Virus record (IMG/VR): IMGVR_UViG_3300012228_000001
Coordinates: 39,293 to 103,292 of that record
Direction: 5' to 3' (one strand)
Origin: a virus
DNA: 64,000 bases
Within the stretch, counting starts at the first letter, position 1. Each line of letters opens with the position of its first letter. Shown here piece by piece: positions 3,781-57,198 of the stretch. The notes below the pieces were generated by a model. The model made no database searches, had not been told where the DNA came from, and saw nothing but the letters and a program-made list of their open reading frames with translations. A program made the translations under genes and the position numbers.

Positions 3781-5274
3781 TTAGTTGAACGGTCTCCACG
3801 TCGCCGTGCGCGGCAACACGTTATTCAAGATGACGTGCTGTTGCGGCTTGGCGACTCGCAGCGCGAAGAAGATCAACTGCGCCCACAAGATTTCCGCCGT
3901 GGTGCTTGGATAGAGCGGGAATTTCATCATCGGGAGCAAGCGCCGGATCGTAAGAGCGCCCATACCCGGCACCATGTTCAGGATGTACGCTTTCGACGTG
4001 CCGGGAATGTCGGTGTTGTAGTCGACATAGACGGTCGTTGCAGCGCCCGAATCGGCGACGCGGGTCATTTCGCGGAAGTCTGCGTCGGCATTGCCGCCGT
4101 TTAACTTGCTGCGATAAACAATCCAACCGCTCGGATGCGCGGTGCCCGCCGTGATCGTCAACGTGACTTTATCGCCAGACGCGACAGTTACTTGTGCGCT
4201 CTTGGTCAGGTTGCCGTGGCCGTCCTTGGTGATCGGCGCGACGGCGTAGTAGTACAAGCCCGCCTGCGCAGCGACAAACTCCGAAGCGGCATCCCCGGCT
4301 GCTACGCCCCCGAGGGTAGCGGCGGCTTCGATAGTCGCATTGAGAGCACCGGCAAAGATACCCGTGGCGGATTTCGCTGCCGGTTGAGATTCCAAAATCA
4401 GCTTGTCGAAACAAGCTTGGAGTCGGCCCTCGAAAGCGAAACTCGACTTGATGCCGATGACCGGCGCACCCTTCATAATGCCGAAGGCGCCGACTTCACT
4501 TGGCGAACCCATCATTACACGGAAAGCCGGATCGAGACCCTTGTCGAGATCGGCCTGAACGCCGGTAGACCAAAAGCCGTGAGAAACCATGCCGAAGTTT
4601 CCGAAGCGGCTCACCTGCTCGGCAGCGTCGACGATCTGCTCGCCGGAATTGCCGATAGGTTGGCCCTTCAGATTCACGATATTGGCCGGTGCGAGGGTCT
4701 TGATAATCTTGTAGAGACCGTCGAACTGTTCCGGCACAACAGACGAGTCGCCGTTGAACAAACCCCACTCACCAGAAGTAAGCAGTTCCAACGCGCCGCC
4801 AGTTTGCTGCACGGAAGTAGCCGAAGCGATGCCGCCTTCCAATTCCTTGACGAACGAAACGCGCCGCTTGGTCATCAGATATTTGATCTGCAACGTGCGA
4901 CGGCGCAGCGTAGCATCCTGCTCGCCGATTGCGCCGAGTTCGGAATTGAACGAACTGCCGGGATAGCCGCCGACAGCAGTCTCTTCCGTCCATTCGTCGA
5001 CAGTCGCGGTAGCGTTGCTCTTTTCAGCCATGTTCCACAGACGGAAATCCGTGAACTGCTGAATGACCGCGAGCAATGTGGCCTCCAAGCTTTGACGCCG
5101 CAAAGCGCCGCCGCCTGTTAAACTAGCCACGTCGGTCACGCCCGTACCAGACGTAAGGGCTTTGAAAAATCCCTCGTAAGCGTCATAGTCGAGTAGGTTG
5201 GGGATGCGCGGGATGCCGCTGCCACCCTCTACTGAACCAAACGGGATCAGTGGATATCCGCCTGCAAGTTCCAT
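3781..5274 (-). CDS. Major capsid protein (SPO1/Twort-like)
   Basis: FKALTSGTG..GGGALRRQSLE N-terminus, EWGLFNGDS..QFDGL, NIVNLKG, C-terminal HVILNNV; 497 aa; order protease-scaffold-MCP. Confidence 0.9.
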   Translation of the reverse strand: MELAGGYPLIPFGSVEGGSGIPRIPNLLDYDAYEGFFKALTSGTGVTDVASLTGGGALRRQSLEATLLAVIQQFTDFRLWNMAEKSNATATVDEWTEETAVGGYPGSSFNSELGAIGEQDATLRRRTLQIKYLMTKRRVSFVKELEGGIASATSVQQTGGALELLTSGEWGLFNGDSSVVPEQFDGLYKIIKTLAPANIVNLKGQPIGNSGEQIVDAAEQVSRFGNFGMVSHGFWSTGVQADLDKGLDPAFRVMMGSPSEVGAFGIMKGAPVIGIKSSFAFEGRLQACFDKLILESQPAAKSATGIFAGALNATIEAAATLGGVAAGDAASEFVAAQAGLYYYAVAPITKDGHGNLTKSAQVTVASGDKVTLTITAGTAHPSGWIVYRSKLNGGNADADFREMTRVADSGAATTVYVDYNTDIPGTSKAYILNMVPGMGALTIRRLLPMMKFPLYPSTTAEILWAQLIFFALRVAKPQQHVILNNVLPRTATWRPFN

Positions 5275-5325: not shown

Positions 5326-6210
5326 TTAACCAACGTCTCTGATCGCCGACATGATATTCGACGGGACCGCCATGCCCTCGTTGACACAAGTCTCGGCAAG
5401 CGCAACGTCTTGGAAGCTGATCTTTTGCGACTTCTGCGCCTTCAGTAAACGCTCCGAGAATTCCAGCCGGGTCATCCCGCCGCCATCGTTGTTCGCGCCA
5501 GCGCCATTGACGCTTTTGTTGGTGGCCGCTGGTTTGTCGACCGCTGATAACATGCTGATGCGACCGCGCCCGGCGTTGCTCGCCCCTTCGAGGCTCTTCT
5601 TCATGCCGTTCAGCATGACGCTCAACCCGTAGGCGATAACTTCGACGGATTTTTCCAGCTTGGCCTGCGCCAAACGGACTTCGTGAATCTCGTTGAAGCC
5701 CTTGTCGAGCTGCTGGTTAATCACGAATACTTTTTCGTCTTCGCTCAAATCCGGGTCGTTGGAGATTTCATCGATGGATTTACGCACGTTGCGCTTCTCG
5801 TCGTAGTACGGCACTTCGGCGTTCGACGGAACATCGACATCATCGTCTTCCATCTTGGCGTCGTAGTTGAATTTCTTTTTGATTTTCTTGGGCGAGTCCA
5901 TGTCGCCGGTGTTGAGGCTATTTTGATCGCCATAAGGCTGCTTGGTCTCACCAGACTTTTTGGCGAACATCTTTTTGTCCATAACCTCGTCTTCTTCCTC
6001 GTCATCATCGCAGCCATCAGCCGGGTCGCCAATCGGCCCCATCGGCATCGCCTTTTTCAACCGGGGCGATGAAATCATGGAGCCGAGCAAGTCGAGCGCT
6101 TTCTGGACAATGCCCAACTGCGTGACCGGCTCTTTGGTTGCTTCCGGCGATTTACCGTCCAGCGATTTTTGAATCTCCGCTGCCTGCGCTTCGAGATCGG
6201 AAATTTTCAT
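5326..6210 (-). CDS. Capsid scaffolding-like protein
   Basis: Acidic, low-complexity, many KS/KA dipeptides; lies between protease and MCP. Confidence 0.65.
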   Translation of the reverse strand: MKISDLEAQAAEIQKSLDGKSPEATKEPVTQLGIVQKALDLLGSMISSPRLKKAMPMGPIGDPADGCDDDEEEDEVMDKKMFAKKSGETKQPYGDQNSLNTGDMDSPKKIKKKFNYDAKMEDDDVDVPSNAEVPYYDEKRNVRKSIDEISNDPDLSEDEKVFVINQQLDKGFNEIHEVRLAQAKLEKSVEVIAYGLSVMLNGMKKSLEGASNAGRGRISMLSAVDKPAATNKSVNGAGANNDGGGMTRLEFSERLLKAQKSQKISFQDVALAETCVNEGMAVPSNIMSAIRDVG

Positions 6211-6226: not shown

Positions 6227-7087
6227 TTAAGCGACCAATTTGAAAATTTGGATCACTGTCTTTTTCGCAATATCGACCGGCTTGCCCGCGCACTTGACTA
6301 AATGCTCAAGCGCCTCTTTCGGATCGTCGGTCTCTTCGTCGTGCCCGCACTTCTTTTTGCCGCCCTGAATTTGCGCCATCGGTGCGCCGTGCAAGCTTTG
6401 GCGTCGCAATGCTTCGCCGCCAGCCATCGCGTTGCTATCCGTGCTGCCCGGCCCGGCGACAAGCGCTTTCGCCATGTCCGCCCATGCCCACGAGTTCACG
6501 GGCTTGGTCGTCAAGACAACGTTCGTGACCATGCAGGCTTTGCTTGACGGATCGCCGAGATTTTGCACCGGGAGATATGCGCCCTCGATTGAGTAGCCAA
6601 GCTTGCGATCAAACCCTGACTTGCGGATCGCTTGAATCAAATCCCATGCGTCGTCGGCGGCTTTCTTTACGCCCGCAGGGAATAGGTGGCCCCAAATCGC
6701 CGTGCCGGATTTCATCGCGCCGTTGATCGGATCGCGATACTGGACACCCTTCTCGACACGCTCTGGCACGCCGATAATGTTGGCCGTTTCACCGGCATGA
6801 CAAGTCGGGCATTCGCCGGAAAAATGTTCAAATTTAAGAAAGCCCTGGCGGGTTGAGAAGCGGTCGAAATCGATCTGGTCGGCGAGCGCCGCGCCGAGAT
6901 TTTTCCCCATCGCTTGAAGCATCGGGGAGTAGGTCGAAAATTGCTCAAGGATCACTTCGCCGTCCAAGTCGCGGTCTTCGGTCGAGATAATGCCGCAAAT
7001 CATCCGGTCGGTCGGGCTGGAAATCTCCACGGATTTCTCAACGTCAAGCGGCACCCAAAAACTAAACGGTTGGCGAGTTCTGTCCAT
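6227..7087 (-). CDS. Prohead (capsid maturation) protease
   Basis: ICGIISTEDRDLDGE, KFEH, LGYSIEG, TNVVLTTKPVN motifs of herpes/HK97-fold prohead proteases. Confidence 0.88.
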   Translation of the reverse strand: MDRTRQPFSFWVPLDVEKSVEISSPTDRMICGIISTEDRDLDGEVILEQFSTYSPMLQAMGKNLGAALADQIDFDRFSTRQGFLKFEHFSGECPTCHAGETANIIGVPERVEKGVQYRDPINGAMKSGTAIWGHLFPAGVKKAADDAWDLIQAIRKSGFDRKLGYSIEGAYLPVQNLGDPSSKACMVTNVVLTTKPVNSWAWADMAKALVAGPGSTDSNAMAGGEALRRQSLHGAPMAQIQGGKKKCGHDEETDDPKEALEHLVKCAGKPVDIAKKTVIQIFKLVA

Positions 7088-7091
7088 AAAC

Positions 7092-7126
7092 AAAAAAAGC
7101 CCGCCAGGGATTACCTGTGCGGGCTT
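7092..7126 (-). terminator. Intrinsic terminator-like hairpin directly upstream of the protease start
   Basis: Minus strand AAGCCCGCACAGG-TAATC-CCTGGCGGGCTTTTTTT. Confidence 0.65.
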
Positions 7127-31677: not shown

Positions 31678-31953
31678 AAATTTCCCTTGATATTGAATTT
31701 GGTATTGGGGCGGAACTTCTTTCCCCTGCTCGTCGACCGCTGCCTGCGGCTGGCGATTCTTCATGCTCTGGACCGCCGCTGCCTGCGCTTCCTTGCGCCG
31801 CTTGTCTTCTTCCTTGTCGAGTTGCTTGACGCGCTGATTGTTGCCGTAGCGCTCGTGCGTCGTCATGCGCGGCGACACGGCGAGATAGGCTTCGAAGTCG
31901 GCCTTCTTGACCGGCTTGACGATCTGCGACTTCTTGACGTTGAAGACGTTCAT
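31666..31953 (-). CDS. Hypothetical protein (possible cargo)
   Basis: N-terminal VKKS..VKKA; coupled to the upstream gene. Confidence 0.5.
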   Translation of the reverse strand: MNVFNVKKSQIVKPVKKADFEAYLAVSPRMTTHERYGNNQRVKQLDKEEDKRRKEAQAAAVQSMKNRQPQAAVDEQGKEVPPQYQIQYQGKFSRH

Positions 31954-32792
31954 TACTTTGGGTCTGCCAAAACGTCGACGAAATGCGCCCCGCGTTGCAC
32001 CATGCGCTTTGCGCCATCTTCGCTAAGGCGCACCCTGTCACCGTCCGATTCCGTCCAATACTCCCAAGCGCCGCCCGATCTGTCGCGGAAGACCTTGTTG
32101 CCAGCTAGGGCCGACGATGTTGGCTTGGGCATAGACGGTCTATCAACGTCCGGGTCGGCGTCTTTCCCACGCTGCGTGTACCCCCCGACCGCGTGCCCCC
32201 CGCGAACGTGCGGCTTGACCTGCTTAATCGCTTTTAGCAGCGACACGACGACAAAAAATCCATCGCCGAGAAGCGACTTGCGATAGGGCTTGTCGCCGGG
32301 ACCGGGCCGATACATGACGTTATGCCTTGGTTCTGGCGCGTCGGGATTCTTCGCGTCGGTCATCACGTCGCCCTCGGCCACGCTCGGATCGAGGCTCGGC
32401 GCCGCCCCGTGCCCGACCACGCTCTGCACGATCTCTTTTTTGCGATAGGGCTGATTACGCTGCACCATTGGGCGGTCGGTTGAGCCGTACTCTAACCGCT
32501 TCGTTTTCTTGTCCGGGTTTTGATGACGCTGCACTGCCGGATTTTTCTTCGACGGTTGAAGCGGGAGATTGCGGATGGCCTTCGCCGCCATGCCGTTGCG
32601 CTTCTTCTTGGCGGCATTGACGTTGTGCTCCTGCTCGTCGTTGTAGGCGTGACTCTGCGGATGGCGGTTCTGCTTATCCCATTCTGGCTCTTCTTCGCTT
32701 ATGCCCGTGCTGCCCGCCTTGCCTTCATCCTCGACGCCATTGGACGACTTGATTAAAACGCGCTTCCCGCGCAAGGAAATCATTGGTAGCAT
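31953..32792 (-). CDS. Putative internal virion protein with leader repeats
   Basis: Contains KAIRNLPLQPSKKNPAVQRHQ and KAIKQVKPHVRGGHAVGGYTQR. Confidence 0.6.
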   Translation of the reverse strand: MLPMISLRGKRVLIKSSNGVEDEGKAGSTGISEEEPEWDKQNRHPQSHAYNDEQEHNVNAAKKKRNGMAAKAIRNLPLQPSKKNPAVQRHQNPDKKTKRLEYGSTDRPMVQRNQPYRKKEIVQSVVGHGAAPSLDPSVAEGDVMTDAKNPDAPEPRHNVMYRPGPGDKPYRKSLLGDGFFVVVSLLKAIKQVKPHVRGGHAVGGYTQRGKDADPDVDRPSMPKPTSSALAGNKVFRDRSGGAWEYWTESDGDRVRLSEDGAKRMVQRGAHFVDVLADPK

Positions 32793-33238: not shown

Positions 33239-33365
33239 CCCCCTGTTCTCCTTTCCCGTCGCGTTCCTGTAGCCGTGCTTTGATTCGCTCCAATAGTTTC
33301 TGCGTGATCGCGTCGATCATCGGTTCGTCACTCTCGTCGATATAATCTTTTGCCTGTTCAGCCAT
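33162..33365 (-). CDS. Small acidic protein downstream of the zeta toxin
   Basis: MAEQAKDYIDESDEP..; start overlaps the toxin 3' end; SD GGAG. Confidence 0.4.
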   Translation of the reverse strand: MAEQAKDYIDESDEPMIDAITQKLLERIKARLQERDGKGEQGDGRDSNLSGGDTADKFSDKNGRGRG

Positions 33366-34473
33366 CGCGTTTCTCCAAAAGCACCGGCTCGTGGCCCTTC
33401 GGCACGTCGTTATCGTAAGCCTCAAAAAAATCCGCGAGCTGTTTTAGCTTCTCGTATGATCTGCGATTTTTATGGTCGTGCGTGGCAATGTAACGGGGAT
33501 CGACAAACCGATGGTCGCCTTCGGGATTGACATATCGGTCTATCGCACGGGTGATTGCTTTCTCTGGCGGCAAATCGGCAAACACGACACCGACCTTGTA
33601 ACCTAGTTTTCGAAACGTATCGATCTGCGCAATGTATTGTTCAGGGGTTTTGAGCGTGCAGTCGATCAAGATGTTCTTCCGCCCCTCTTCGGCTTGGGAA
33701 ATGATCTCGCTTACAACGTCGGTCGCTTCGTCTTGGAGAAGTGCCGCGTTCCAGCCTTGATATTCCGGCAGTTGGCGCTTCACGTCGTCCGAGTCGATAT
33801 GGACGAAATCGTTGAAGCCTCGCATCTTAACGATGGTTGACTTGCCGCTGCCGGGCACCCCGCCCATGTAAATTACACTCGGTTCGGCTTGAGACGGTAT
33901 TTGGTGAAGCGCCCCTTCGATGATCCGGTTGTGGCGCTGGCGTCGCGAAGACGTGTATTCCCCCGCTTCGGTGTGCAATTCTTTGGTTTGTTTCCCGGCG
34001 TTGACCCTATCGCGCAGACTATTAAATTCTTCGTTTAACCCGCGCTCGTCGACGATCTCATCGGCAAACTGGCGCACACGCCGGGCCTCGATATCGATTA
34101 CCGTATCCGGCTTGTTCCAATCCTCTTTCTTGCCCGGCTGGACGCTGGTGCGCGGCGGCTCGGCTTTGGGCTGCTCTTGCTGTGGCTGTTGCGGCTGCGG
34201 CTGCTTTTGCACCGCGACGCCGACGTTGACCTTGCCCTGGCGCTCTTGCGGCTCTGGCTTCGGCCCGCCTTGCCAGCGGCGGACCATCGGGTTTGTCTTG
34301 GACGGAATGAGCTGCAAGCCCGGTCCCGGCGCTGCGCCAGCCTGATACGGCTTGGCGGCGGGCATGGCCTTGGACGCGCCGGACTGCTCGGCCATGATGG
34401 CGTCGACGAGCATATCGATTGCCTCGTCTTCGTCAGTCTCGTCGTTTATGCCGACTAGCGCGATTCTCTTCAT
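33358..34473 (-). CDS. Zeta toxin-family P-loop kinase
   Basis: MGGVPGSGKST, IDSDDVK..LPEY, NILIDCT, RFVDP..I, YDN motifs. Confidence 0.85.
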   Translation of the reverse strand: MKRIALVGINDETDEDEAIDMLVDAIMAEQSGASKAMPAAKPYQAGAAPGPGLQLIPSKTNPMVRRWQGGPKPEPQERQGKVNVGVAVQKQPQPQQPQQEQPKAEPPRTSVQPGKKEDWNKPDTVIDIEARRVRQFADEIVDERGLNEEFNSLRDRVNAGKQTKELHTEAGEYTSSRRQRHNRIIEGALHQIPSQAEPSVIYMGGVPGSGKSTIVKMRGFNDFVHIDSDDVKRQLPEYQGWNAALLQDEATDVVSEIISQAEEGRKNILIDCTLKTPEQYIAQIDTFRKLGYKVGVVFADLPPEKAITRAIDRYVNPEGDHRFVDPRYIATHDHKNRRSYEKLKQLADFFEAYDNDVPKGHEPVLLEKRDG

Positions 34474-35228
34474 GCCGCCATCTGTATCGTTTCGTTCTTC
34501 TCAAGGTCATAGATTGCCAATTGATTTGCTTGCAGGGCGAGCTGCCGCGCCTGTTGGAAATCGTCTACAACGGTCGAGATGTCGAGATATACTTTCCCGG
34601 TCGTTTCGTCTTTCCACCCGCCGAGATAGTTCCGCGACGCCTTGATCTGATCCCAATGCTCCCGCACATAGGTCTTGACCCGCGCCCGTAGCGCTTGCGG
34701 CTCAATCGGCCCGTCGATCACTTCTTCGGTGTTCTTGGCGAGCGATAACGCATAGCCCCGGCGCGGCGCTTCTCGCTCTTTGTGGCGCACCGGGTTATAA
34801 GTGACCCCGCCCTGCTTTTGGATAACGTCAGCCAGCCCGCCACCCCGGTTGGCATGGGTGTGTTGATCGTGCCAGCCTTGCAGGTGCTTCTCCATCGGCT
34901 CAAGCCCCAATTCCCGCGATAGATGGCCCTGGCTGCCCCGTGGCGTGAAGCTACCCGAACCTGAACGTACATCATGCCTCGGCGACGGCACTAACGCGGA
35001 CGGTCCAAATTGAGAGGCGTGCCCATTGAATCGGAGCAGGCCGATAGTCTCGTTCATGGAGTACATGGCGTTTTCGATCTCTTTGGCCTTCTCGATATCC
35101 CCCGCCTTGATGGCCTGCTCGCGCTCGACTCTGGCCCCGTCCATGAACATTTCGGCCCGGTTCATAAGATCGACAAGATCGCGGTCGGCCTCGGCTGCGG
35201 CTCGGCCTGTTTCCGGTGAGGGTTCCAT
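34470..35228 (-). CDS. Putative cargo protein with conserved C-terminal domain
   Basis: KHLQGWHDQHTHAN leader, then GGVT..GYALS..YLGGWKD..G.VYLDIS..A..LA..NQLAIYDL. Confidence 0.6.
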   Translation of the reverse strand: MEPSPETGRAAAEADRDLVDLMNRAEMFMDGARVEREQAIKAGDIEKAKEIENAMYSMNETIGLLRFNGHASQFGPSALVPSPRHDVRSGSGSFTPRGSQGHLSRELGLEPMEKHLQGWHDQHTHANRGGGLADVIQKQGGVTYNPVRHKEREAPRRGYALSLAKNTEEVIDGPIEPQALRARVKTYVREHWDQIKASRNYLGGWKDETTGKVYLDISTVVDDFQQARQLALQANQLAIYDLEKNETIQMAA

Positions 35229-35229
35229 T

Positions 35230-38200
35230 TTATTGCGCCACTCCGAAAAACTCCAAGATTCTGCGGCCCAAGATGCTTTTAACGTATTGCTCCATTGCTA
35301 ATCCTACATGCACTGGATTAGCAAGCGATTTCAAAAGCGCAGGCGTGATCGCGCCGATGACCTTCATTTCGTTTTCGATCTCGGTCCAGTGCGCGTCCTC
35401 GAACGGGCTGTCGGTATAGCGGTAGTGGTGCAGAGCGATATCGCCCTTGCGCGGTGCCCGGTCTACCCGCCCAATGCCCTGATAGTAACCCGCCGCGTCC
35501 TGCGGGCGTCCGGCCTGATGGAAGGAATCGGCGGTCTGCAAGTTATGCCCGGCCTGACTTGTCTTGTCGATAAACATGATGCCCGCTTCGCCCTTGTTCT
35601 TCTCAGCGGCCCACTGCTCTTTGCGCTGTGCGACGACGCGCTCAAGCGCTTGGTCGGGGGTCAAGTTTTCTGTCTTGGCGATCTGCTCGGCTTCCTCTTT
35701 GAACTTGGCCCGCTTGTTCAGCTCGGTCAAATCGTAGGCTTTGATCTTCGCCTTGCGCAGTAGGGTGTTGAGCGCGACCCGCTGCGGTTCGCTATCGATG
35801 AAAACGACGTGGTGCGTCTTGCCCTCTTTGATCTCCGATAGGATGGTCTTGGCGACTTCCTTGGCCTTCGCGTTATCCTCGCCGCCGTGCAGATTGTTCC
35901 AGTGCCGCGTGTCCATTTCCTTCATAACCAAGTGATTGATGCGCTGACCTATCTGCGCTTTGGTCCGCCCCATGCGCTTGCCCTTGGCGGTTTCCTCTTC
36001 GGTGATCTTCGCCAGAAGCGTGTTGTAGCCAGCCTCGATCTCTTTCTGCCGGGCGATCTGCATTTGGCTACGCTTGACGGTGTGATCGTTGGTGACGACC
36101 TTGTACGGCTTATCGCCCGCTTTGCCGCTTTCGGTTCGTGTCTTGAATTGATCGCCGGAAACGTAGGGCGATATTTTCTGGAAAATTTGCTGTTGGATCG
36201 CTTCGTCTTGCGCGTTGGTGCCGTTGCCGCCGCCCGCGTACATGCGGCCAAAGCCGACCTTGCTGCCGATCTTGGAATGAAAAATCGGGTTCCCTTGAGA
36301 GCCGTCTTTTTTCCTCTGATACCCGGCAAATTCTTTCGTCGCCCAATTGACCCACTCGTAAATTTCGTCCAACGATTCGCGGGCCGGTGATGCCGATAGC
36401 GCGACGCGATGTTTGAACGGGATGTTGACGATGCGCTTTGCCGCCGAGCCTAACCGTTCCGACGTTTGGCTTTTCAAGTTCTGCGGTTCGTCGATACTGG
36501 CAAAGTCAAACCCGTGGCCGGTGATCGCGTCAACGTCCCACTGCGAGCGCAGCGCGTCCGAATGCGAGGCGATGACGAGCTGGCCGGGCTTGATCTGTTT
36601 CCAAAATTTCTGCCTTTCTTCCTTGGTCGTTTTCTCTGGAATGACGAGAATGTCTAAATCGGTCGCCCGGTGAAGCTGATCCGCCCATTGCGCCGTCAAG
36701 CCATCCGGGCAAAGCACGATGCCTTTGTAGTGCGGGTTTTTGGCGAGCAAGTGCGACCACCAGCCCGCCGTCGTGAGAGTCTTGCCAGCGCCGGTCGTGC
36801 GCGTGAGAAGACCGCCGCCCGTCTTGTTGAGCCAGTTGATATCGTTGCGCTGCGGCAAGCGTAACGCGAAATCCTCTTTTACGCCCGCGTCGTTTATCCA
36901 TTCGCGTTTGAAGTGCGGCGGGCGGTCCATCGGCGTGAAAGGCGTATTATCGGTCTTGATCTTGTTCAGCTCGGCGACTTCCCTGCTGAGAATCGGCGAT
37001 TGCGTGCCCCACCGATTTGCAAGATAGCTGGCGTTCCCGGTGATCTGATATTGGAGAATCGCTTCCCCGGTCGTCGCGTCGGTGCCGATAATGTTGTGCG
37101 CGATCTTGATCTGTTCGGGAATTTTGCTTGGCGAAACGTTCAGCTTTTCTTTGAGAATCCGATAGGCGTTGTCTTTCGACATGCCGACGTTGATCGTGAC
37201 TCGCTCGTCAATACCGGCCTGCGCATGCTTCATGGCAAGCAACAGCGATCCGCTGGCCGCGAGCGATCCGTAAGCCCGCCCGATGTTCTGCCGCCGCTGT
37301 AAAATGTTGTATGCCTCTTGGCGCATGATCGTCGCTTCGGCGGTCAACTCGCCGTTTGCCTTCTGGCGCTGAATTTCCTGATACGTCGCCTTGAGTTTCT
37401 TGTCTTCGTCGAGCGCCTTTTGCTCCTGTGCTAGTAGGTTTGTCTTGTTGTCGTTTTCGATTGCCTGAATGATCGCGGTGATCGACTGGCCTTTAAGCTG
37501 GCGCTGGCGGGCTTGGCCGACAAGCCAGTAGCCGACTATCGATGCGGTCACTTGAGGCGAGAAGGCGTCCGACAACCGGCCAACGTCAAGTTCGATGCCG
37601 GTATGCTTTCCCACTAATCCTGTAAGTGCAGCCGCAGCCGCGCCGCTGACAAAGCCCTTGCGGCGCTTTAATAAACCATTGAGATATTCGCTGCCGCCGT
37701 TGGCGACCGCGCCGTTGAGCGCATAGCCGACTTCATCGTTCCAATGTTCATGGACGACGCTGTAAAACGATTCGTCGCCGTTGATCTTGGTCCGCGCCGC
37801 GTAGCGTTCAAGGGCGTTGCGCACGTCTTCATCGGTGACTCGCTCCACGGCACTCTGGCGCAGCGCTTCGAGGGCGTTGGCTACGACGACCGTTTCGGGG
37901 CGGGGGAGTCGCGGCGGAATGATTTTGAGAATCTCTTTCTTTTCCGCCATTGCGCGGGTGAACGCATTGAAATCGTCGAGCGCGGTCTTGGCCGCTTCCT
38001 TGTCTTGGGTCAACAGGACTCTATCAAGCGGATCGCGGGCCTTCTTGGTTGGGATGATTACGATGGCGTCTTTCTTTGCCTCTTCGCGCAGCTCTTGATT
38101 TTCCTCGCGGCGCTTTGCCGCCTGCGCGGCTTTCTTGTGCATGTCTTCGGTAGTGGCGAGTTCCACTTCCTGCGGCGTATTGGCTTGGAGCGGCACTTCC

Positions 38201-41200
38201 GGCGCTTCCATTTCAAGCGGCTGCTCGTCGCGGGCAACGACTTCTTGGATCGCTTCGATATTCGCGAACCGATCATCTATCGCCTGCGCAGCTTCTTCTG
38301 CCGTGTTGAACGTGCCAATCACATTGTCGTCGCCAACGTAGGCGTCATAGACCGCCGCCGTGCTGTCGCCCTCGGCTTCACGCGGCACAACCGCCGCTGA
38401 CGCCGCTTCAACCGTTTCGCTGTCCCTAATCCACATGGGTTCATTGGGTGTTGGGCCAACGTCAGCCTTCCAACCTTCGGGCGGCTTGTCCGGCACTGCC
38501 GATAGCGGCGTGCCCGCGAGCGGCTCTTCGCGTTCCGGCTTGGGCGGGTGAATGATCTCTTCCAAAACTTTCTTGTAATAGTTGAACTTCCGAAGCGCCG
38601 CCTCGCGCTGCATGCGCTTCATAATCTGATCTTGGACCTTGGCGACGGTCTTGGCGTAGCCCTCGATCAACGATTCTTCCATCCCGGCATTCGTCGCTTG
38701 GCGCTTGGCGCTCTCGACGACTACTTTCTGTTGGACTTGGGTGAGACCGAGTTTGGATATGCCGACCGACTCCAAAAACTTCTGTTCAAGTTCTTTCGTC
38801 TTGGCGCTGGCCTCGTGGCGGACTTCTTTAAGCTTTGCCTCGTAGGGTGCGCGTTCTTCGCGGCGCTTCTCGTATGCCGCCCATTGTTCTACGTCTTTGC
38901 GCTGCTCTTTCAACGCGCCCATCTGGAAACTCGCGTGCGCCAGCCCGGACTCTTCTTGCCAGTCGCCGACTTTGTAACCAGCACGACGCGCTTCGCCCGG
39001 ATCGATGACGGCCTGATTGTCGGCCCGCTTGGTGATTAAGATATGGCGACCGGCGAGCGGCGAACTTGGATCGGTTACGGTAATCCAAACGGACGCGCCG
39101 ACCGGCACGTTGGCCCAATCAATCTTGTTGCTGCCGGGAAGATGCGGCGTTGAGATAATGCCTTTGCGCACCGATGGCATGATCGCGAAGATGACGTTGC
39201 CAAGCTTGACGCCGTTGGGCGTCGGCGTGACGACGAACGCAACGCTTTTCTTGATAGGCTTGGCGACCTTGGCGGCATACTCGGCTTCCATCCAAACATC
39301 CTTGAATTTATCGCTCGCGTGCATACGGTAAATCTGCTGGCGTGTCATGCGCAAACCGATCTTTGCCAGGGCCGCTTCGGTGGCCGTAATCATCTTTCGC
39401 CAACCGTCGTCTGTGCTCAAATTAAACGAGCTAGATTTAACCGTCTTGAGCTGTTCCTTGATTTTATCTTCGAGCGCATTCTGTGCCGCCAGCCCCGGAT
39501 TGCGCCGGTGCATTTCGGCCCATCGTGCTTCACGACGCGCCTTAGCCTCGGCCATGTATTGCGCGTCCAGCTCTTCATCGGTTTGATGGCGCATGACTGA
39601 GGGATTTTTCTTCGATGGCTTGAGCGGCAAGTCGCGGATCGCCTTGTCAATCTCCACGTCGCGTGCGCGGATAAAATGTTCGGGGTGATCCTTTGGATGA
39701 TAGCCGCGCTCGCCGTGCTCTTCGTTGCCGTAGAAAGACTCGGAGAATTTGCCGAACGCCGGGTCGGTGACACTGCCCTGCGGGTTTTTATGCTTGTACG
39801 CTCTTTGAATCGCGGCGTTGTGATCGAGCCAAGACGAATGCACCGTGCCGTCTTTGAGCCGTACCGCCCGAAACGCGCCGGGGGGGATGGCCGGTTGCCG
39901 TGGCGGGGCGTTCCACTCCATGCGGTTGCTTCCCTGATGCCGCATGACTGCCGGGTTCTTCTTCGAGGGTGATAGCGGCAAATCGCCGATTGCTTTCTTC
40001 GCGTGATCCATGAAGCGGAAATCTTTGCCGCTCCAATTGTCATGCCAGCAATTCTCGCATACTGACGCATGCTGCCCGGTTGCCGAGTTCTGATACTGCG
40101 CGTGTCTAGTCCGCTCGCCGCAATTCTCGCAGTTGTCGTCGTGTTCACGAATCAGCGAATGCAACTCGCCGCCCATCTTGAGCGGGTTCTTGCCGACAAG
40201 CTGGTGACGGCGCACTGCGGGGTTTGACGGAGCTGGCAGTAACGGAAGATTCCCTATCGCCTTGATGGCGATGACAATGCCCTTCCACAATGAAGTGCTA
40301 GGGCCGCATTTCTTCATCGTGCGATAGAGAGAAAAATCATTCTCCATAAACTCGCGCATGGAGAATTCGTAGTACCGATTCTTTGAGCGGTTATCGGATG
40401 AAAAGTCTAAAACGACCGTTTGCTTTGGTGCCTGCGGGAATTTTCTAAGACTTGCCATAATACAGTCTTCCACAATACGGAATGCGCTTTCGGTTCCGAC
40501 TTCGTAATCAAAGGACGCACCACGCCTCACCCAACCATCTGTAAGCAATTTCCTAATGCTACGTTCACCGTCGCCCCGCGGTCGCCCATGTATGGCGATA
40601 TTGGCTATGTCTTCGTGTTCCTGGCGACCACCATGATAAAACGGTTTTCCTACCGCTTTCCTATCTGGCGTGATGAATGCGCCGGACCACAACTCATCTG
40701 TGATCGGCACACCTGCCCGTCCAAGATTATTTTTGTATTTCTCAAGCTGCGCGTCTGAGTGTTGCACCGGGCTGACTTCGCGCTGTTGCGTAACGGGTTT
40801 GTTTAATTGCTGGTGTCGCTTCACCGTTGGATTCTTTTTCGATGGAAGCAAGGGCAAGTCGCGGATCGCCTTCCACGCATCGGGCAACGCGGAGTACACT
40901 TTCGGCTTCCAAGGTTTCTCCCGGTAATCGAAATCGAGCGAGCCGAGTTTCTTGTCGAGCGCTTCAAGAATCTTGTCTTCGTTCTTGAGAACGCCGCGAT
41001 GAAAAATTTCGCTGTCTTTGTCGCCCATGATAGCCTTCGCCAGTAAGTGCCGAGCCTTTGCCTTTTGTTCGTTGACGCATAGCTTGAAAATCTTCTCGTG
41101 CGGAACGTGAGCGTTAAACTTGAATTCGCCGTTCCAATCGCCCATGTCGAGCAAAAAGTCCCTGCCGATCTTCTCGCCGTTGATTCTAAACCGGGCAATG

Positions 41201-43542
41201 TCCCATGCGTAAGTGCATTTCTCTGCGGCTTCAATGATCTTGTTCTTTTGCTGGCGGGTAAACTTCGCATCGTTTGACCGCACGAAGTCGTTCACCACCG
41301 ATTGAAAGTTTTCCAGCATCCCGGCGCGTCGATCTTCGTCGGTGAAGTCAAACCCGTAAAGCGCCCATGCGTACTTTCCAACGTCGCCATCGGCGAGCAA
41401 GTCAACGCGCTCAATTCCAGCTTTTTTGTAATACGCGAAGCTTTGCTCAAGCAGGTCGGCAGCGATGCCCTTGCCCTGATACTTATTTTTGAGAAAGAAA
41501 CTGCTGATGTACGCCCGACCAGCTCCTAAATAAATGCTTTGCAGCGCCGAGCCAGCGACGGCATTATCGGAGCGGCGGCGGATCAGCGCGTAGACTTCAA
41601 GTTCGTTCGCGTTGGTCGGCGCGGTGATCGTGAGTTCGCCGGTATAAAATTCATCGTGCTTGAGACTGAACGCTGCGGCAATCTTATCGATTGACGTGCC
41701 GTAGCTGTAAAGCAGATTGTCGTCCAGTTCTTGCCGATCTTCGGTGCGAACAGTTAGTTCCGTTTCTGATGTGACGCTGCCCTTAGTGCGCCCGCGAGCC
41801 TGACGCTTTTCGGTCGTCGTTCGCGCCCGCTCGGCCTGCGTCGGCGCTTCGCGTTGGAGCTGCGTCCAGGCGGTGCCGATCTCTGGCGGCATTTCGTTGC
41901 CGTAATGCTCCCAATGGCGCGACCATCGGGTGTAGATTCTCTCCACTTCTCCATTGTGTTCGGGGTGCTCTCTGCCCTGTTCGCGAAAATACTCCCGAAT
42001 GTCCTGCGAGTGAGCATTGCTTCGCATCATGCCGTCGACGTGAGTGGTGATCTGCGGCTCAAGGTCTTCCCAACCGATTGTCTGTTGCCGTTCCTTGCCA
42101 AACGCTTCGTCGACTCGCGCCCCCTGCTCCACGGCGGGGTCAATATCGGTGCGCTGATGACGGCGGATTCGCGGGTTAGCGTGCGACGGGAGAAGCGGAA
42201 GATCGCGGATAGATTTTGAGACATCCTGCTGTTGCTGCTTAAACAGGCTTTCCGCCTGCTCCCATCCGCCCGCGTCATACGCATCTTCGATATCCCGTGC
42301 GCCCTGAGAGTCGCCCTTGAACCGGCGCTGGTTTGCCATGCCGACGACGCGGCTTAGTTCGTTGCCCTTCTGAAAAGCTTCGGTCGTCGCCAGCTTGTCC
42401 AATTGTCCCGATGATCGCTGCTTGGCGATGGTTCGCGCATCGTGCACCGCTTCGAGAATATCCTTTGCCTGCTCGTCCGACATAAAGCCCCGGTCGTCAA
42501 AGAACGTGACTTGATACGCGCCGGGGTTCTTCGTGCTCGCATGGATCACAGCGCCCTTGTTCGTTTGCGGATCGAAGTATTCGATCACGCCGATGGTCTT
42601 GGGCGATACTTTGGCGGCGAGTTCCTTGAGCCTCGCTTCGAGTTCTTGCATTTGCCCTTTGGCGTCGGGGTCTTTGCCGCCCTTGAGATATTCATGCCAC
42701 TTCGCTTCGATCTGTTCTTTCAACGAGGCAATCTGATCGACCACCATGTTCGCATTCAGCGCTTGAGCTGCGGTGCGCTGATGGCGGCGCACGGCTGGAT
42801 TCTTCTTAGACGGCAACAAGGGTAAGTCGCGGATGGCCTTTAAGACGACGCCGATGGTCGTGCGGTCGAGTGCCTTGTTGCAAATACCGCTCATGGTCGG
42901 TTCGTCGCCGCAGATTAAACAACGCGGATGGCCGTTCTTGTGCGTCCACTGCGCGGGCTTGAACTTGTGCGGCTGCAAAGCTTCGGGCTTTTTCTTGGCT
43001 TCGCGGATGACGGCATCTTCGGCCAACTTGCGCGCTTCGTCATCGAGGATTAGCCCCTTGATCGCTTCGTCGGTGCGCCCGTTCTTGAGCCAGTGCTTGA
43101 ATTCTTCGAGGGTCTTTTCCTTAATGCTGCTTAATCCGTTCCAGCCTGGTTTGTAATTCGACAAATATATCTCGCGGGCTTCCTGCTCGCTGTCGACGCC
43201 GAGAATAACCTTATGCTCGTCCCACTGGCCGTCGACCACTTGATTGATGACAAAGACTTTTTCGGATTCAGGATGCGGCCCGACGTAGCAATCGATCTGC
43301 TCGTCATCACCACCGTTGGTGCCGCGAATGTAGCCGTAGTCGGTAGTGATCTTTTGCGACCACTTCTCGCCGTGCCGGTCGACGCCGGAACGAGTCGACC
43401 CCTTGGGGTTCTCGATTGATATGTTAAATCCGTGAAGCCAAAGGTGCCGCTTCGGATAGTTCCCCGCTTCAATCTGCGCGGGTGTAGGACTAGCCTTGAT
43501 CGCTATCAGCATGGGCTTCTTGCGGCGCATGATCGTGACCAT
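35230..43542 (-). CDS. Giant polyvalent virion protein (InPase-like, GNAT, Zn-ribbon, SNF2-like helicase; DarB-like)
   Basis: N-terminal PTPAQIEAGNY.K..ISIENPKGS.R..YGYIRGT..DEHKV; GNAT YQGKGIA..WALYGF; helicase TTGAGKT, IDEPQ, SASP, QGIGRVDR. Confidence 0.85.
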   Translation of the reverse strand: MVTIMRRKKPMLIAIKASPTPAQIEAGNYPKRHLWLHGFNISIENPKGSTRSGVDRHGEKWSQKITTDYGYIRGTNGGDDEQIDCYVGPHPESEKVFVINQVVDGQWDEHKVILGVDSEQEAREIYLSNYKPGWNGLSSIKEKTLEEFKHWLKNGRTDEAIKGLILDDEARKLAEDAVIREAKKKPEALQPHKFKPAQWTHKNGHPRCLICGDEPTMSGICNKALDRTTIGVVLKAIRDLPLLPSKKNPAVRRHQRTAAQALNANMVVDQIASLKEQIEAKWHEYLKGGKDPDAKGQMQELEARLKELAAKVSPKTIGVIEYFDPQTNKGAVIHASTKNPGAYQVTFFDDRGFMSDEQAKDILEAVHDARTIAKQRSSGQLDKLATTEAFQKGNELSRVVGMANQRRFKGDSQGARDIEDAYDAGGWEQAESLFKQQQQDVSKSIRDLPLLPSHANPRIRRHQRTDIDPAVEQGARVDEAFGKERQQTIGWEDLEPQITTHVDGMMRSNAHSQDIREYFREQGREHPEHNGEVERIYTRWSRHWEHYGNEMPPEIGTAWTQLQREAPTQAERARTTTEKRQARGRTKGSVTSETELTVRTEDRQELDDNLLYSYGTSIDKIAAAFSLKHDEFYTGELTITAPTNANELEVYALIRRRSDNAVAGSALQSIYLGAGRAYISSFFLKNKYQGKGIAADLLEQSFAYYKKAGIERVDLLADGDVGKYAWALYGFDFTDEDRRAGMLENFQSVVNDFVRSNDAKFTRQQKNKIIEAAEKCTYAWDIARFRINGEKIGRDFLLDMGDWNGEFKFNAHVPHEKIFKLCVNEQKAKARHLLAKAIMGDKDSEIFHRGVLKNEDKILEALDKKLGSLDFDYREKPWKPKVYSALPDAWKAIRDLPLLPSKKNPTVKRHQQLNKPVTQQREVSPVQHSDAQLEKYKNNLGRAGVPITDELWSGAFITPDRKAVGKPFYHGGRQEHEDIANIAIHGRPRGDGERSIRKLLTDGWVRRGASFDYEVGTESAFRIVEDCIMASLRKFPQAPKQTVVLDFSSDNRSKNRYYEFSMREFMENDFSLYRTMKKCGPSTSLWKGIVIAIKAIGNLPLLPAPSNPAVRRHQLVGKNPLKMGGELHSLIREHDDNCENCGERTRHAQYQNSATGQHASVCENCWHDNWSGKDFRFMDHAKKAIGDLPLSPSKKNPAVMRHQGSNRMEWNAPPRQPAIPPGAFRAVRLKDGTVHSSWLDHNAAIQRAYKHKNPQGSVTDPAFGKFSESFYGNEEHGERGYHPKDHPEHFIRARDVEIDKAIRDLPLKPSKKNPSVMRHQTDEELDAQYMAEAKARREARWAEMHRRNPGLAAQNALEDKIKEQLKTVKSSSFNLSTDDGWRKMITATEAALAKIGLRMTRQQIYRMHASDKFKDVWMEAEYAAKVAKPIKKSVAFVVTPTPNGVKLGNVIFAIMPSVRKGIISTPHLPGSNKIDWANVPVGASVWITVTDPSSPLAGRHILITKRADNQAVIDPGEARRAGYKVGDWQEESGLAHASFQMGALKEQRKDVEQWAAYEKRREERAPYEAKLKEVRHEASAKTKELEQKFLESVGISKLGLTQVQQKVVVESAKRQATNAGMEESLIEGYAKTVAKVQDQIMKRMQREAALRKFNYYKKVLEEIIHPPKPEREEPLAGTPLSAVPDKPPEGWKADVGPTPNEPMWIRDSETVEAASAAVVPREAEGDSTAAVYDAYVGDDNVIGTFNTAEEAAQAIDDRFANIEAIQEVVARDEQPLEMEAPEVPLQANTPQEVELATTEDMHKKAAQAAKRREENQELREEAKKDAIVIIPTKKARDPLDRVLLTQDKEAAKTALDDFNAFTRAMAEKKEILKIIPPRLPRPETVVVANALEALRQSAVERVTDEDVRNALERYAARTKINGDESFYSVVHEHWNDEVGYALNGAVANGGSEYLNGLLKRRKGFVSGAAAAALTGLVGKHTGIELDVGRLSDAFSPQVTASIVGYWLVGQARQRQLKGQSITAIIQAIENDNKTNLLAQEQKALDEDKKLKATYQEIQRQKANGELTAEATIMRQEAYNILQRRQNIGRAYGSLAASGSLLLAMKHAQAGIDERVTINVGMSKDNAYRILKEKLNVSPSKIPEQIKIAHNIIGTDATTGEAILQYQITGNASYLANRWGTQSPILSREVAELNKIKTDNTPFTPMDRPPHFKREWINDAGVKEDFALRLPQRNDINWLNKTGGGLLTRTTGAGKTLTTAGWWSHLLAKNPHYKGIVLCPDGLTAQWADQLHRATDLDILVIPEKTTKEERQKFWKQIKPGQLVIASHSDALRSQWDVDAITGHGFDFASIDEPQNLKSQTSERLGSAAKRIVNIPFKHRVALSASPARESLDEIYEWVNWATKEFAGYQRKKDGSQGNPIFHSKIGSKVGFGRMYAGGGNGTNAQDEAIQQQIFQKISPYVSGDQFKTRTESGKAGDKPYKVVTNDHTVKRSQMQIARQKEIEAGYNTLLAKITEEETAKGKRMGRTKAQIGQRINHLVMKEMDTRHWNNLHGGEDNAKAKEVAKTILSEIKEGKTHHVVFIDSEPQRVALNTLLRKAKIKAYDLTELNKRAKFKEEAEQIAKTENLTPDQALERVVAQRKEQWAAEKNKGEAGIMFIDKTSQAGHNLQTADSFHQAGRPQDAAGYYQGIGRVDRAPRKGDIALHHYRYTDSPFEDAHWTEIENEMKVIGAITPALLKSLANPVHVGLAMEQYVKSILGRRILEFFGVAQ
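39583..42840 (-). repeat. Six dispersed 63-bp coding repeats (KAIRDLPLLPSKKNPAVRRHQ)
   Basis: Copies at 42778-42840, 42154-42216, 40810-40872, 40201-40263, 39934-39996, 39583-39645. Confidence 0.92.
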
Positions 43543-54698: not shown

Positions 54699-55286
54699 TC
54701 ACGGCGCTGGCGGATTGCATGGCGGGGTCGCCGTATTGAGATTCACCCACGAACCAACAAAGCGCCACCACGTTTTCGACCGACCGAGCACATGGACTGT
54801 CCCGTTGCACAATGCCAGCTTACTGCCGCTCGCATCGAACACGCGGGCATTATTGCGCAGCACCCAATAATTGCCCGGCGTTGCTAAGTTTTCCGATCCT
54901 AAACTCCACACGTCGGCGCGGGTCACAACGTTCGATATGTTCGCGGCTGGCGGAACGAACGTGCCATCGGGAGTCTGCGCTCCCGCCAGTGTCTTGCACG
55001 CCGCATTCGAATACGCGGACGCGCCTACCGCGTTAAACGCGGCCACGCGGTAACAGTAGGTGTTTGGCAATATGCCGTCCTGTAGCGTGCTGTCGCTGTA
55101 AGCCGTGATGTTCGCGCCTATCGCTGCGGCCACCACTTGCCACGGCGAACCGTTCAATTGCCGCTCAAGCACAAAGCCGTCTTCGTTGTTCGCGTTGTCG
55201 GTCCATGCAAGATCGGCGGTTGCGGCCAATGCCATGCGCCCACAAAGCATGAGCCCGAGTAAAATAATCAATGGCGTTTTCATCAT
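54699..55286 (-). CDS. Fibronectin type III domain protein with signal peptide
   Basis: LAWTDNANNEDGF.LER..YCYRVAAFN.VG.S.YSN; N-terminal ..ALA|A. Confidence 0.75.
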   Translation of the reverse strand: MMKTPLIILLGLMLCGRMALAATADLAWTDNANNEDGFVLERQLNGSPWQVVAAAIGANITAYSDSTLQDGILPNTYCYRVAAFNAVGASAYSNAACKTLAGAQTPDGTFVPPAANISNVVTRADVWSLGSENLATPGNYWVLRNNARVFDASGSKLALCNGTVHVLGRSKTWWRFVGSWVNLNTATPPCNPPAP

Positions 55287-57121
55287 AACGTCCAGTTATC
55301 GTAGCGATCCTTGCCTTTGTTTACGACAACCAAAAACTTTTCCTTGGCGCTCTTGGTCGCCGCCTGCGCTATGTTTTGCTGCCCCTGCTCGCCTGCGGCC
55401 ATGCCGTTGTTCTGCCGTCCGGCCATCGCGCCGCCGCCCTGACTCTCCTGATCGCCGCCCTCTTCATCGTCGCCAAGATTGTTGAGCACGTCCTGCGGTA
55501 AACCCATCTGTTGCGCTTGCCCCCCCATGCCCATAGCCTCTTGTTGCTCTTGCATTAGCTTGCCCTGATAAACCTGCATAAGCACGGGGTTGAGCGGCGC
55601 GTTGCCCAAGTCTTCGTCTTCCATTTCGTCGTCGCCTAGCGCGTGCCGCATTTCGTTTACGGTCCACGCGAGTTTCTTCATTTCGAAGATGTTCTTTTGC
55701 TCTTCGGGATGAAGCCCCATGTACCGCATGACATAGCAAGGATTGTAGACCGGGATGATAAACTCGTTGTAGATTCCCTCAATCCAAGACGCCAGCGGTT
55801 CAAGCCCCTTGTCTCTGGCGTGCGCCAGTTTCTCGCTGGTATCTTCGCCGCCAAGTGGCGTTGACGACCGCGACGTAAAAGCGTCGCTGTTGATCTCTTC
55901 AGGCGACATGCCCCATATCGCGCAGATAATGCTCGTCAAGAAAGTCATCCACTTGGCGAACATCATTTCGTTCACTTCGCCATCGATCTTAGTGAACGTG
56001 CTTGATGCCTCTTTGTTCGGTGAAACGAACACGGGTAAACGCCAGCGCTGCGCCGGGCCTGATAGGCTCGCGTTCCACATACGCTTGAAGTCGTTTAACT
56101 GGCTCTGATCGAAGTTGCCGAATACCGTCAAGATGCCCCGTGGAATGTTGTTCCGATCAAAGAACGCTTGGTTGTACGTCAATGCGTTCAAAAAGCCGGT
56201 CACAAGCTTGACGACCATTTCGGTCTCGCCGTAGCCGTAGCGGCTCGCTTGAATGTCGGTGCGCGGGTTGCGCACTTCGTAGATGATATCCTGCGGCGTG
56301 TAAAACGAGCACACCATATCGTTGTAAATTTGCAGCGCAATAATCCGGTCATCGCCAAGATAGCCCTCTTCATGCGCGATGCGGATGGTCTCGGCGGCAA
56401 TGTTGTAGATGCCGCTGATCTTTGAACCGTCCTGTGTCATTTCGGTTTCGATAGGCGCGGCGTCGCAAGTCAGTGTGTCGCGCACAAGCTTGGCGATAAA
56501 CGTCGACATATTATCGCGGTGCTTGATCCACTTGCGCTTGCGCGGGTCGGGTTCATCGCCGCAATTCATTATGAACGTTTGGATATCCTCGGCGGTTTTC
56601 TTCTCTTCGTCGGTAAGCCTGTCGCCGACTTTTTTGTGCTTGGGAATACAGACAAAACCTAGCGGGTGTTCGTCCTGCGAGTCGTAGGCGCATGACATGC
56701 TGTTCAGTTGCCGAATGCGCGTGATGATCGCTGCGTTCAAGATCGGACAATGCTCGACCATCATTTTAAGCGCGGTGAATCCAAAGGGTGAAAGTTTCTC
56801 CACCCAATGATTCATGTGACCGCCGCTGATAATGCCGAGTTCGTCGATATACAGATACGACCGATGCGATCCCTTGCGGTGCATGACCGGCAAGACACCG
56901 GGCGGGTTGGCCTTGACGGCCTTCTCAACAACCGCGTCGGTTGGCCCCATGCCGGTGCGCCATTGCCCTATCTGCGGGACTTGATAAGTGCCGTCCACAG
57001 ACTTCTGCAACTCCAATTGCTGTTGGAGCATGAGCACTTCTTCGGAACGAACGACGCCTGCTTTCGCTTCGTCTAAGAACTCGCGAAATAGTTCGTTATT
57101 CACGTCGCGCCGTTCAGCCAT
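55283..57121 (-). CDS. Portal protein
   Basis: YEVRNPRTD..YGYGETE, YNQAFF..PRGIL, ICAIWGMSPEEIN, GLEPL, TVNEMR; ATG 57121 has an SD (ORF is open to 57196). Confidence 0.9.
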   Translation of the reverse strand: MAERRDVNNELFREFLDEAKAGVVRSEEVLMLQQQLELQKSVDGTYQVPQIGQWRTGMGPTDAVVEKAVKANPPGVLPVMHRKGSHRSYLYIDELGIISGGHMNHWVEKLSPFGFTALKMMVEHCPILNAAIITRIRQLNSMSCAYDSQDEHPLGFVCIPKHKKVGDRLTDEEKKTAEDIQTFIMNCGDEPDPRKRKWIKHRDNMSTFIAKLVRDTLTCDAAPIETEMTQDGSKISGIYNIAAETIRIAHEEGYLGDDRIIALQIYNDMVCSFYTPQDIIYEVRNPRTDIQASRYGYGETEMVVKLVTGFLNALTYNQAFFDRNNIPRGILTVFGNFDQSQLNDFKRMWNASLSGPAQRWRLPVFVSPNKEASSTFTKIDGEVNEMMFAKWMTFLTSIICAIWGMSPEEINSDAFTSRSSTPLGGEDTSEKLAHARDKGLEPLASWIEGIYNEFIIPVYNPCYVMRYMGLHPEEQKNIFEMKKLAWTVNEMRHALGDDEMEDEDLGNAPLNPVLMQVYQGKLMQEQQEAMGMGGQAQQMGLPQDVLNNLGDDEEGGDQESQGGGAMAGRQNNGMAAGEQGQQNIAQAATKSAKEKFLVVVNKGKDRYDNWTL

Positions 57122-57198
57122 CGGCGCACCCTCGTTGGTGATAATCGCAAATTTGTCGGAGAAGTTCATCCGGGCCTTTAAGGCATGGACGGACAAGT

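Follow-up and report, generated by a model that had tools for sequence, protein, structure and literature searches.

A giant gene of an uncultured virus encodes a protein, hereafter P0001, in which a conserved peptide recurs six times, each time ahead of a different module. The gene lies in IMG/VR record IMGVR_UViG_3300012228_000001, a complete genome of 103,292 bp with 123-bp terminal repeats, of which we analysed bases 39293-103292, a stretch of 64,000 nucleotides that we call the window and to which all coordinates refer unless another source is named. We are highly confident that the repeated peptide marks junctions, as a conserved tag at the N-termini of polyvalent cargo modules, and we propose, with a confidence a little above even, that P0001 is cut by the head protease of the phage into separately tagged, injected proteins. 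The solid part of this picture is the anatomy of the junctions, their conservation, the rules of their position and the similarity of their sites to that of the capsid protein.

P0001 comprises 2,770 residues, as read from an open reading frame and its translation (35230..43542), and is encoded on the minus strand, as are all domains, motif copies and genes of the window for which coordinates are given below. Pfam places an InPase domain at residues 22-153 (43084..43479; PF18823, E 1.1e-49), a GNAT acetyltransferase domain at residues 651-736 (41335..41592; PF00583, match over 651-729, E 7.4e-7, score 29.9 bits where the cut-off is 20.7) and a SNF2-related helicase domain at residues 2240-2404 (36331..36825; PF00176, E 5.8e-12), together with a weak Helicase_C match (35455-35622; PF00271, E 0.026). 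This agrees with the original prediction, made from the letters of the window alone, which had read an InPase-like N-terminus, a GNAT-like acetyltransferase and a SNF2-like helicase, and had listed a zinc ribbon among the modules; a putative one, formed by a CxxC-x20-CxxC pair at residues 1138-1165 (40048..40131), was found by sequence reading, without a family match. Word-indexed homologue searches with residues 225-1340 (near and shorter lengths) returned P0001 itself or nothing, megablast and tblastn of P0001 against cultured phages gave matches confined to the InPase domain, and the ESM Atlas held no credible relative of the module at residues 912-1093.

In being a giant polypeptide of unrelated effector domains in a virion-gene setting, P0001 resembles the polyvalent proteins of phages and conjugative elements (Iyer, Burroughs, Anand, de Souza and Aravind, 2017; PMC5512222). 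It combines several domains (InPase, GNAT and SNF2 by Pfam, plus orphan modules), carries a signature domain of the class (the PF18823 InPase, a family match that leaves the β-hairpin insert aside) and is encoded among the virion genes of a phage with portal and terminase. Its domain set and the different module behind each motif copy support its assignment to the virion-module polyvalent proteins, as originally proposed. An embedded zincin-like metallopeptidase, a frequent though non-obligatory trait of the class, was not found, as P0001 and its neighbours P0002-P0004 contain neither HExxH or HExxxH nor any peptidase family match.

The six copies in P0001 conform to the 21-residue motif K[AS]I[RG][DN]LPLxPxxxNPxVxRHQ and were located by pattern and profile at residues 235-255 (copy 1, 42778..42840), 443-463 (copy 2, a K↓S variant, 42154..42216; the arrow marks the predicted scissile bond here and below), 891-911 (copy 3, 40810..40872), 1094-1114 (copy 4, 40201..40263), 1183-1203 (copy 5, 39934..39996) and 1300-1320 (copy 6, 39583..39645). 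The original prediction had their positions right, its numbers being the low ends of these 63-nt copies. With a profile of the copies, each of the six scores 56-65 bits (domain E 1e-16 to 2.5e-19), and the whole 103-kb genome, searched in six frames, holds just two further places. One is in P0002, a 279-residue protein (31953..32792; profile domain E 3.5e-15) with a seventh full copy at residues 71-91 (32520-32582); the other is in P0003, a zeta-toxin-like kinase protein (33358..34473; PF06414, E 1.9e-27, residues 192-346), whose degenerate core LQLIPSKTNPMVRRWQ at residues 53-68 (34270-34317) is preceded by K35↓A36 (profile and regular expression).

The copies are old. Across the 21 motif codons the proportions of synonymous (pS) and non-synonymous (pN) differences are 0.78 and 0.19, compared with 0.66 and 0.69 in the flanks, and the copies are therefore not recent DNA duplications; what is conserved is the peptide, not the DNA, and it is kept by selection. 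This bears directly on the view that the repeats are by-products of module shuffling and do nothing as peptides, being either joints left by recombination or internal duplications of recent date. Such a view is in keeping with flanking modules that are unrelated to each other and recur elsewhere as separate genes, yet the saturated pS and the unrelated flanks leave no DNA-level identity to drive recombination, pN within the motif is low, and the peptide is conserved in 44 protein clusters of distant phages. A recombination-scar origin is contradicted by the codon analysis, and we regard shuffling as a highly improbable explanation.

Beyond the window, a profile search over 1.84 billion representative proteins (E < 1e-3) retrieved 44 motif-bearing proteins, many of which have 2-4 copies. 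Their wider core consensus is LxLxPSKKNPxV(R/K)RWQ, with H in place of W in the window phage and a few close relatives. The similarity of the carriers to P0001 is confined to the motif, plus the InPase where present, and their domains include InPase, ART-PolyVal, ddrB-ParB, HD_4, RadC, LPD1, PBECR3, DRAT, kinase, GNAT, SAM lyase, topoisomerase I and HipA_C. At the level of DNA, a pattern search of viral contigs found the RWQ form in four and the RHQ form in no other contig, and tblastn with one 33-residue copy matched Thermus phage MN1 alone, the sole cultured carrier found. The motif is absent from Pfam, and its strings were found in no searchable paper.

In these carriers, the motif follows strict rules of position. 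Among 11 large carriers, all mapped copies lie outside Pfam domains, bar a marginal end overlap with DUF5661 in P0038. Of 45 proteins, 24 have their first core among the 80 N-terminal residues, where 16% would be expected to, and none of the 45 has a core within 90 residues of a C-terminus. Tag and module also occur together as stand-alone genes: P0050 resembles the GNAT module of P0001 (residues 677-798), P0019 the start of its sixth module and P0031 that of its third. An N-terminal role is also favoured by P0034, whose sequence, with the gene start as predicted, begins Met-Ala-Ile-Lys-Asp-Leu-Pro-Leu. Its Met falls exactly on the predicted P1, and removal of this residue would yield the same N-terminus as the predicted cut. 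Pfam maps, stand-alone homologues and N-terminal bias all agree with the original claim that each copy precedes a different module. In P0037 and P0038, DUF5661 ends right at the K-[AG] element ahead of the tag core, and may be a common pre-junction module.

Structure prediction for P0001 points the same way where it is informative. An AlphaFold2 (AF2) model built with an 8-row alignment gives a confident InPase fold (predicted local distance difference test, pLDDT, 74-95 over about residues 31-154) and a confident helical hairpin at residues 258-311, with copy 1 in the low-confidence stretch between them (block pLDDT 43-61); wherever a motif copy inside a folded domain could be looked for, in the 11 large carriers and at copy 1, there was none. 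A single-sequence AF2 model of residues 225-1340, which is poor (mean pLDDT 41) and of no use for boundaries, puts K-A-I at a helix end followed by coil in five of the six copies. In the model of copy 1, the core (residues 242-254) is drawn at low confidence (pLDDT 43-61) as a small β-hairpin that pairs L-L-P with R-R-H around a K-K-N-P turn.

Comparison of the carriers shows that the junction is bipartite. Of 60 foreign copies, 35 have a Lys element of the form [ILVMF]-x-K-[AGS] at a distance of 4-24 residues ahead of the core, whereas the frequency in control windows is 7% (p = 1e-24); upstream of foreign cores, no enrichment was seen for R[AGS], E[AGS], K[DE] or K[LIV]. The core itself has 16 residues, LxLxPSKKNPxV(R/K)R(W/H)Q, is basic (net charge +4) and is followed, over the next 10-30 residues, by a stretch poor in hydrophobic residues. 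The spacer between Lys element and core ranges from 5 to about 20 residues and is short in the window phage, which is why the whole unit looked like a single 21-residue motif. The six copies of the originally described unit are thus real, but the unit has two parts, and the widely conserved one is the core, not KAI.

Two explanations of the junction as a self-acting element were tried and rejected: self-cleavage, given the lack of conserved catalytic-type residues and an Asn that can be replaced, and a eukaryote-style 2A skipping peptide, given a motif that has NP but no NPGP. Several foreign K-[AG]-to-core spacers (in P0009, P0029, P0043, P0030, P0032, P0035 and P0041) read Q-L-S-L-F, Q-L-G-M-F or Q-L-G-L-F and thus look like the pentapeptide that binds the bacterial sliding clamp; no such spacer occurs in the window phage. 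P0001 also has core-less K↓A or K↓S sites, namely I-A-I-K↓A-S-P at residue 16, N-K↓A-L-D-R at residue 223, just ahead of copy 1, L-L-A-K↓A-I-M-G-D at residue 836 in module 2 and I-K-K↓S-V-A at residue 1432, which may be extra cut sites or chance.

What the Lys element resembles becomes apparent from the head genes of the window. These encode a prohead protease (6227..7093; phrog_1028, E 2.8e-23), which tblastn connects to Herelleviridae prohead proteases, and a major capsid protein (3781..5274; phrog_752, E 4.6e-65), and between them a scaffold-like protein (5326..6210) without a family match, to which we assign a scaffold role because its gene lies between those for the protease and the capsid protein. 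By sequence homology of the capsid protein and the protease, the head module is Herelleviridae-like (capsid protein against PDB 5lii, E 1.3e-20). In tblastn searches, the capsid protein matched 775 and the protease 680 phage records, mostly from phages of Staphylococcus, Bacillus, Listeria and Enterococcus, and the closest are 90-95-kb phages of Gram-negative hosts and Thermus.

The major capsid proteins of A511/Twort-like phages had been stated in the original prediction to be matured after Lys. We found no usable literature statement of the A511 or phi812 capsid cleavage site and used the lengths of deposited chains instead: the phi812 capsid protein has its full length of 463 residues in PDB 5lii and is a 439-residue chain in 9row, where residue 4 aligns at the place of residue 28 in 5lii, so that the 9row chain begins at Ser25. 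These chains imply that the mature phi812 N-terminus arises from a cut at K24↓S25, in line with the original statement, and in an alignment to 5lii and 9row it is on this site that K38↓A39 of the window capsid protein falls (5158-5163), which we take as its predicted maturation site.

At all seven full copies of the motif in the window, the predicted site reads either K↓A-I or K↓S-I and so has the form of K38↓A39-L in the capsid protein. Sites of this form also mark the other proteins of the head module. At about residues 208-236, the protease contains a 27-residue copy of the capsid N-arm (capsid residues 38-66) that starts at K-A-L, the shared segment reading K-A-L ... G-G-x-A-L-R-R-Q-S-L; through this mimic the protease may be directed into the procapsid and subsequently cut. 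Of all proteins of the genome, it is the scaffold-like one that is most enriched in K[AS][ILVM], with 7 sites against 0.84 expected (p = 2.8e-5 among 106 open reading frames). Three tag-carrying relatives, two of them viral contigs and one a prophage-like region of a Bacteroidetes metagenome-assembled genome (MAG), show K↓AL ahead of the capsid N-arm and K↓SL where the mimic begins in the protease; their fused scaffold part is rich in xK↓S[ILV] sites, and their tags read K↓SID or K↓AVD. Two relatives (L024 and L032) likewise mimic the capsid N-arm in their protease-scaffold fusions. Between the end of the tag (A-V-R-R-H-Q) and the capsid N-arm (A-L-R-R-Q-S) there is a weak likeness that falls short of significance by profile.

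In the mechanism that we propose, P0001 and the neighbouring tagged proteins would be loaded into the prohead, each module past the N-terminal InPase being preceded by a bipartite junction whose first part, a predicted hydrophobic-x-K↓[A/S]-[I/L] site, would lie at the end of a hydrophobic or amphipathic helix. A Lys-specific protease of the Herelleviridae type would then trim the capsid protein at K38↓A39, cut its own C-terminal capsid mimic, degrade the scaffold and, by the same specificity, cut P0001 after the junction Lys at six sites, with predicted pieces of 26.6, 23.1, 51.6, 23.2, 10.0, 13.2 and 163.8 kDa. The second part of the junction, the 16-residue basic core (LxLxPSKKNPxVxR(H/W)Q), would be retained at the new N-terminus of every piece but the first, where it may serve as a portable N-terminal tag. 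P0002 and the zeta-toxin-like P0003 are single-module neighbours with the same leader-K↓A-core layout. Cleavage by the head protease is plausible, the new support for it being comparative.

Several observations weigh against this model. Head packaging, cleavage and tag function are all deduced for a phage that is uncultured. K[AS]-hydrophobic is a short pattern, found in P0001 at 13 sites against 7.9 expected (p = 0.06), six of which are the motif copies, and about a quarter of the cores (21/68 tallied) have no K[AGS] within 30 residues upstream. With 16 conserved residues, the core far exceeds the requirements of a protease site and could have a role unrelated to cutting. Giant cargo can also be packaged uncut, as exemplified by the N4 virion RNA polymerase (PMC5512222). 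Finally, the motif is absent from the five nearest cultured phages by capsid protein, among them Bordetella phage PHB04, whose giant gene is annotated as an N-6 DNA methylase.

Some of these points favour a different explanation, in which the giant protein stays intact and the motif copies act as short linear docking sites, set in flexible linkers, that tie it at multiple points to one partner, such as the capsid interior, the portal, the packaged DNA or a host factor after injection, K-A-I being merely a helix end. The core is longer and far more conserved than known prohead-protease sites and is kept in a phage of another head type; its basic character, the hydrophobic-poor stretch behind it, the cores that lack an upstream K[AGS] and the unprocessed N4 polymerase all sit well with such a tether. 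Against such a tether stand the strong upstream enrichment of hydrophobic-x-K-[AGS], a form shared with the capsid, protease and scaffold sites, a tag that is strictly N-terminal to modules and never C-terminal, and the stand-alone P0034, in which Met takes precisely the place of the predicted P1. We consider an intact, multiply docked P0001 rather unlikely.

The phage of another head type is Thermus phage MN1, whose gene MN1_750 adjoins the portal gene and contains two copies of the core. Its upstream element is R↓GY(S/A)L, not K↓A, and BLAST against the head-region genes of MN1 revealed no similarity to the capsid protein or protease of the window. The upstream element hence differs between head lineages, being K↓A/S in the window phage and R↓GY in MN1, and the core does not, as expected if the head protease reads the upstream element, and this fits, in the few genomes at hand, a lineage-specific cut site joined to a universal tag. 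MN1_750 (L008:11947-13035) encodes a tandemly duplicated protein of 362 residues with three R-G-Y-(S/A)-L elements, the third of which lies at its extreme C-terminus without a core.

The same comparison bears on a further alternative, that the junctions are cut by another protease, of phage or host, possibly only after injection, with the core as its recognition element. Post-injection processing of polyvalent proteins was proposed by Iyer et al. (2017; PMC5512222), phages whose head proteases are unrelated share the core, and some relatives have a weak zincin match (P0037). Neither HExxH nor a peptidase family match occurs in P0001-P0004, however, and a core that is constant next to an upstream element that changes with the head lineage runs counter to it, which leads us to consider cutting by another protease unlikely.

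Returning to processing by the head protease, the near-invariance of the core across distant hosts and head types indicates that it probably interacts not with a capsid protein specific to one lineage but with something universal, e.g. packaged DNA or the exit path. By extension, and only tentatively, the core may be a universal delivery tag, exposed by a lineage-specific head-protease cut or by a translation start, that couples modules to the packaged DNA or exit channel for co-ejection, and that would form an address system across phages of Thermus, Bacteroidota and other hosts.

Among known systems, the internal proteins and Alt of phage T4 are similar in that these injected head proteins carry an N-terminal leader followed by a prohead-protease site. 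In T4, a conserved targeting leader is removed, gp21 cuts after Glu (L/I-x-E) and each protein has its own gene. Compared with this capsid-targeting sequence, the conserved core here follows the predicted cut and would stay on the protein, P1 is Lys and the units are combined in one polyprotein. As in Twort-like phages, gp5 of HK97 is matured after Lys (K103↓S104), and we know of no report of a capsid-type Lys site that punctuates a cargo polyprotein. In the Twort-like maturation represented by phi812 (PDB 5lii, 9row), whose capsid protein and protease are homologues of the window proteins, it is the capsid protein alone that is concerned.

Polyvalent proteins, like P0001, are predicted to be packaged and injected, and the relatives of P0001 carry the ART-PolyVal, ddrB-ParB, PBECR3, LPD1, RadC and HD domains; the processing of polyvalent proteins, however, was proposed to proceed via embedded zincin metallopeptidase domains, which P0001 lacks, having bipartite junctions instead, and a term search of the 2017 paper found no such junction motif (PMC5512222). 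In the jumbo phages phiKZ, 201phi2-1 and SPN3US, the prohead protease cuts many internal head proteins at a simple consensus, some into several retained fragments (PMC7411985, PMC10052503), but this consensus ends in Glu, and, to our knowledge, a long conserved tag that is retained is not described and the substrates are not strings of polyvalent-type enzyme domains. DarB of the Dar system of phage P1 is likewise a giant helicase-containing protein that is carried in the head and injected against host defence; it is a methyltransferase-helicase, whereas P0001 has no methyltransferase domain in Pfam, and the PHROG link of P0001 to DarB-like proteins (phrog_10089) covers only residues 16-161, i.e. 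the InPase. Polyvalent proteins and protease processing of head cargo are thus known already; the present case is set apart by the long core, predicted to be retained, and by its spread across head types.

For polyvalent proteins, open questions have been how loading takes place, whether the chain is divided into individual effectors and by what means it exits the capsid, and so far only embedded metallopeptidases have been proposed as the processor. The locus described here offers a concrete candidate code, a Lys site of capsid-maturation form joined to a conserved tag, present in at least 44 protein clusters, that would be retained. If this is true, effector boundaries would be readable from sequence in many uncultured phages, small head-cargo proteins would become recognisable and a short tag might be at hand for loading foreign proteins into phage heads.

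The giant gene is part of the late region, in which a single strand encodes the terminase (59440-61506), the portal (55283-57196), the tail proteins and the proteins of the head module, in the order terminase, portal, tail-fibre-like and β-helix proteins, giant gene, three to four small genes and a 1,057-residue tail protein and, past an inverted island, prohead protease, scaffold-like protein and major capsid protein. Immediately downstream of the giant gene lies that of P0004 (252 residues; 34470..35228), whose N-terminus is homologous to that of a tag-bearing protein, P0044, with 51% identity between residues 1-103 of both. P0044 then has its tag at residues 116-136, and at the matching place P0004 shows a possible relic only (L-G-L-E-P ... 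W-H-D-Q).

The giant gene comes after the portal gene and before those for protease and capsid protein, both here and in the prophage-like region of the Bacteroidetes MAG (L032; contig JAKAGV010000002.1, 157432-184175). There, the portal gene is followed by two adjacent giant polyvalent genes, one for a protein of 2,248 residues with two tags and the other for a protein of 2,235 residues with an InPase and a degenerate tag, and past these come a protease-scaffold fusion and a capsid protein that are homologous to those of the window.

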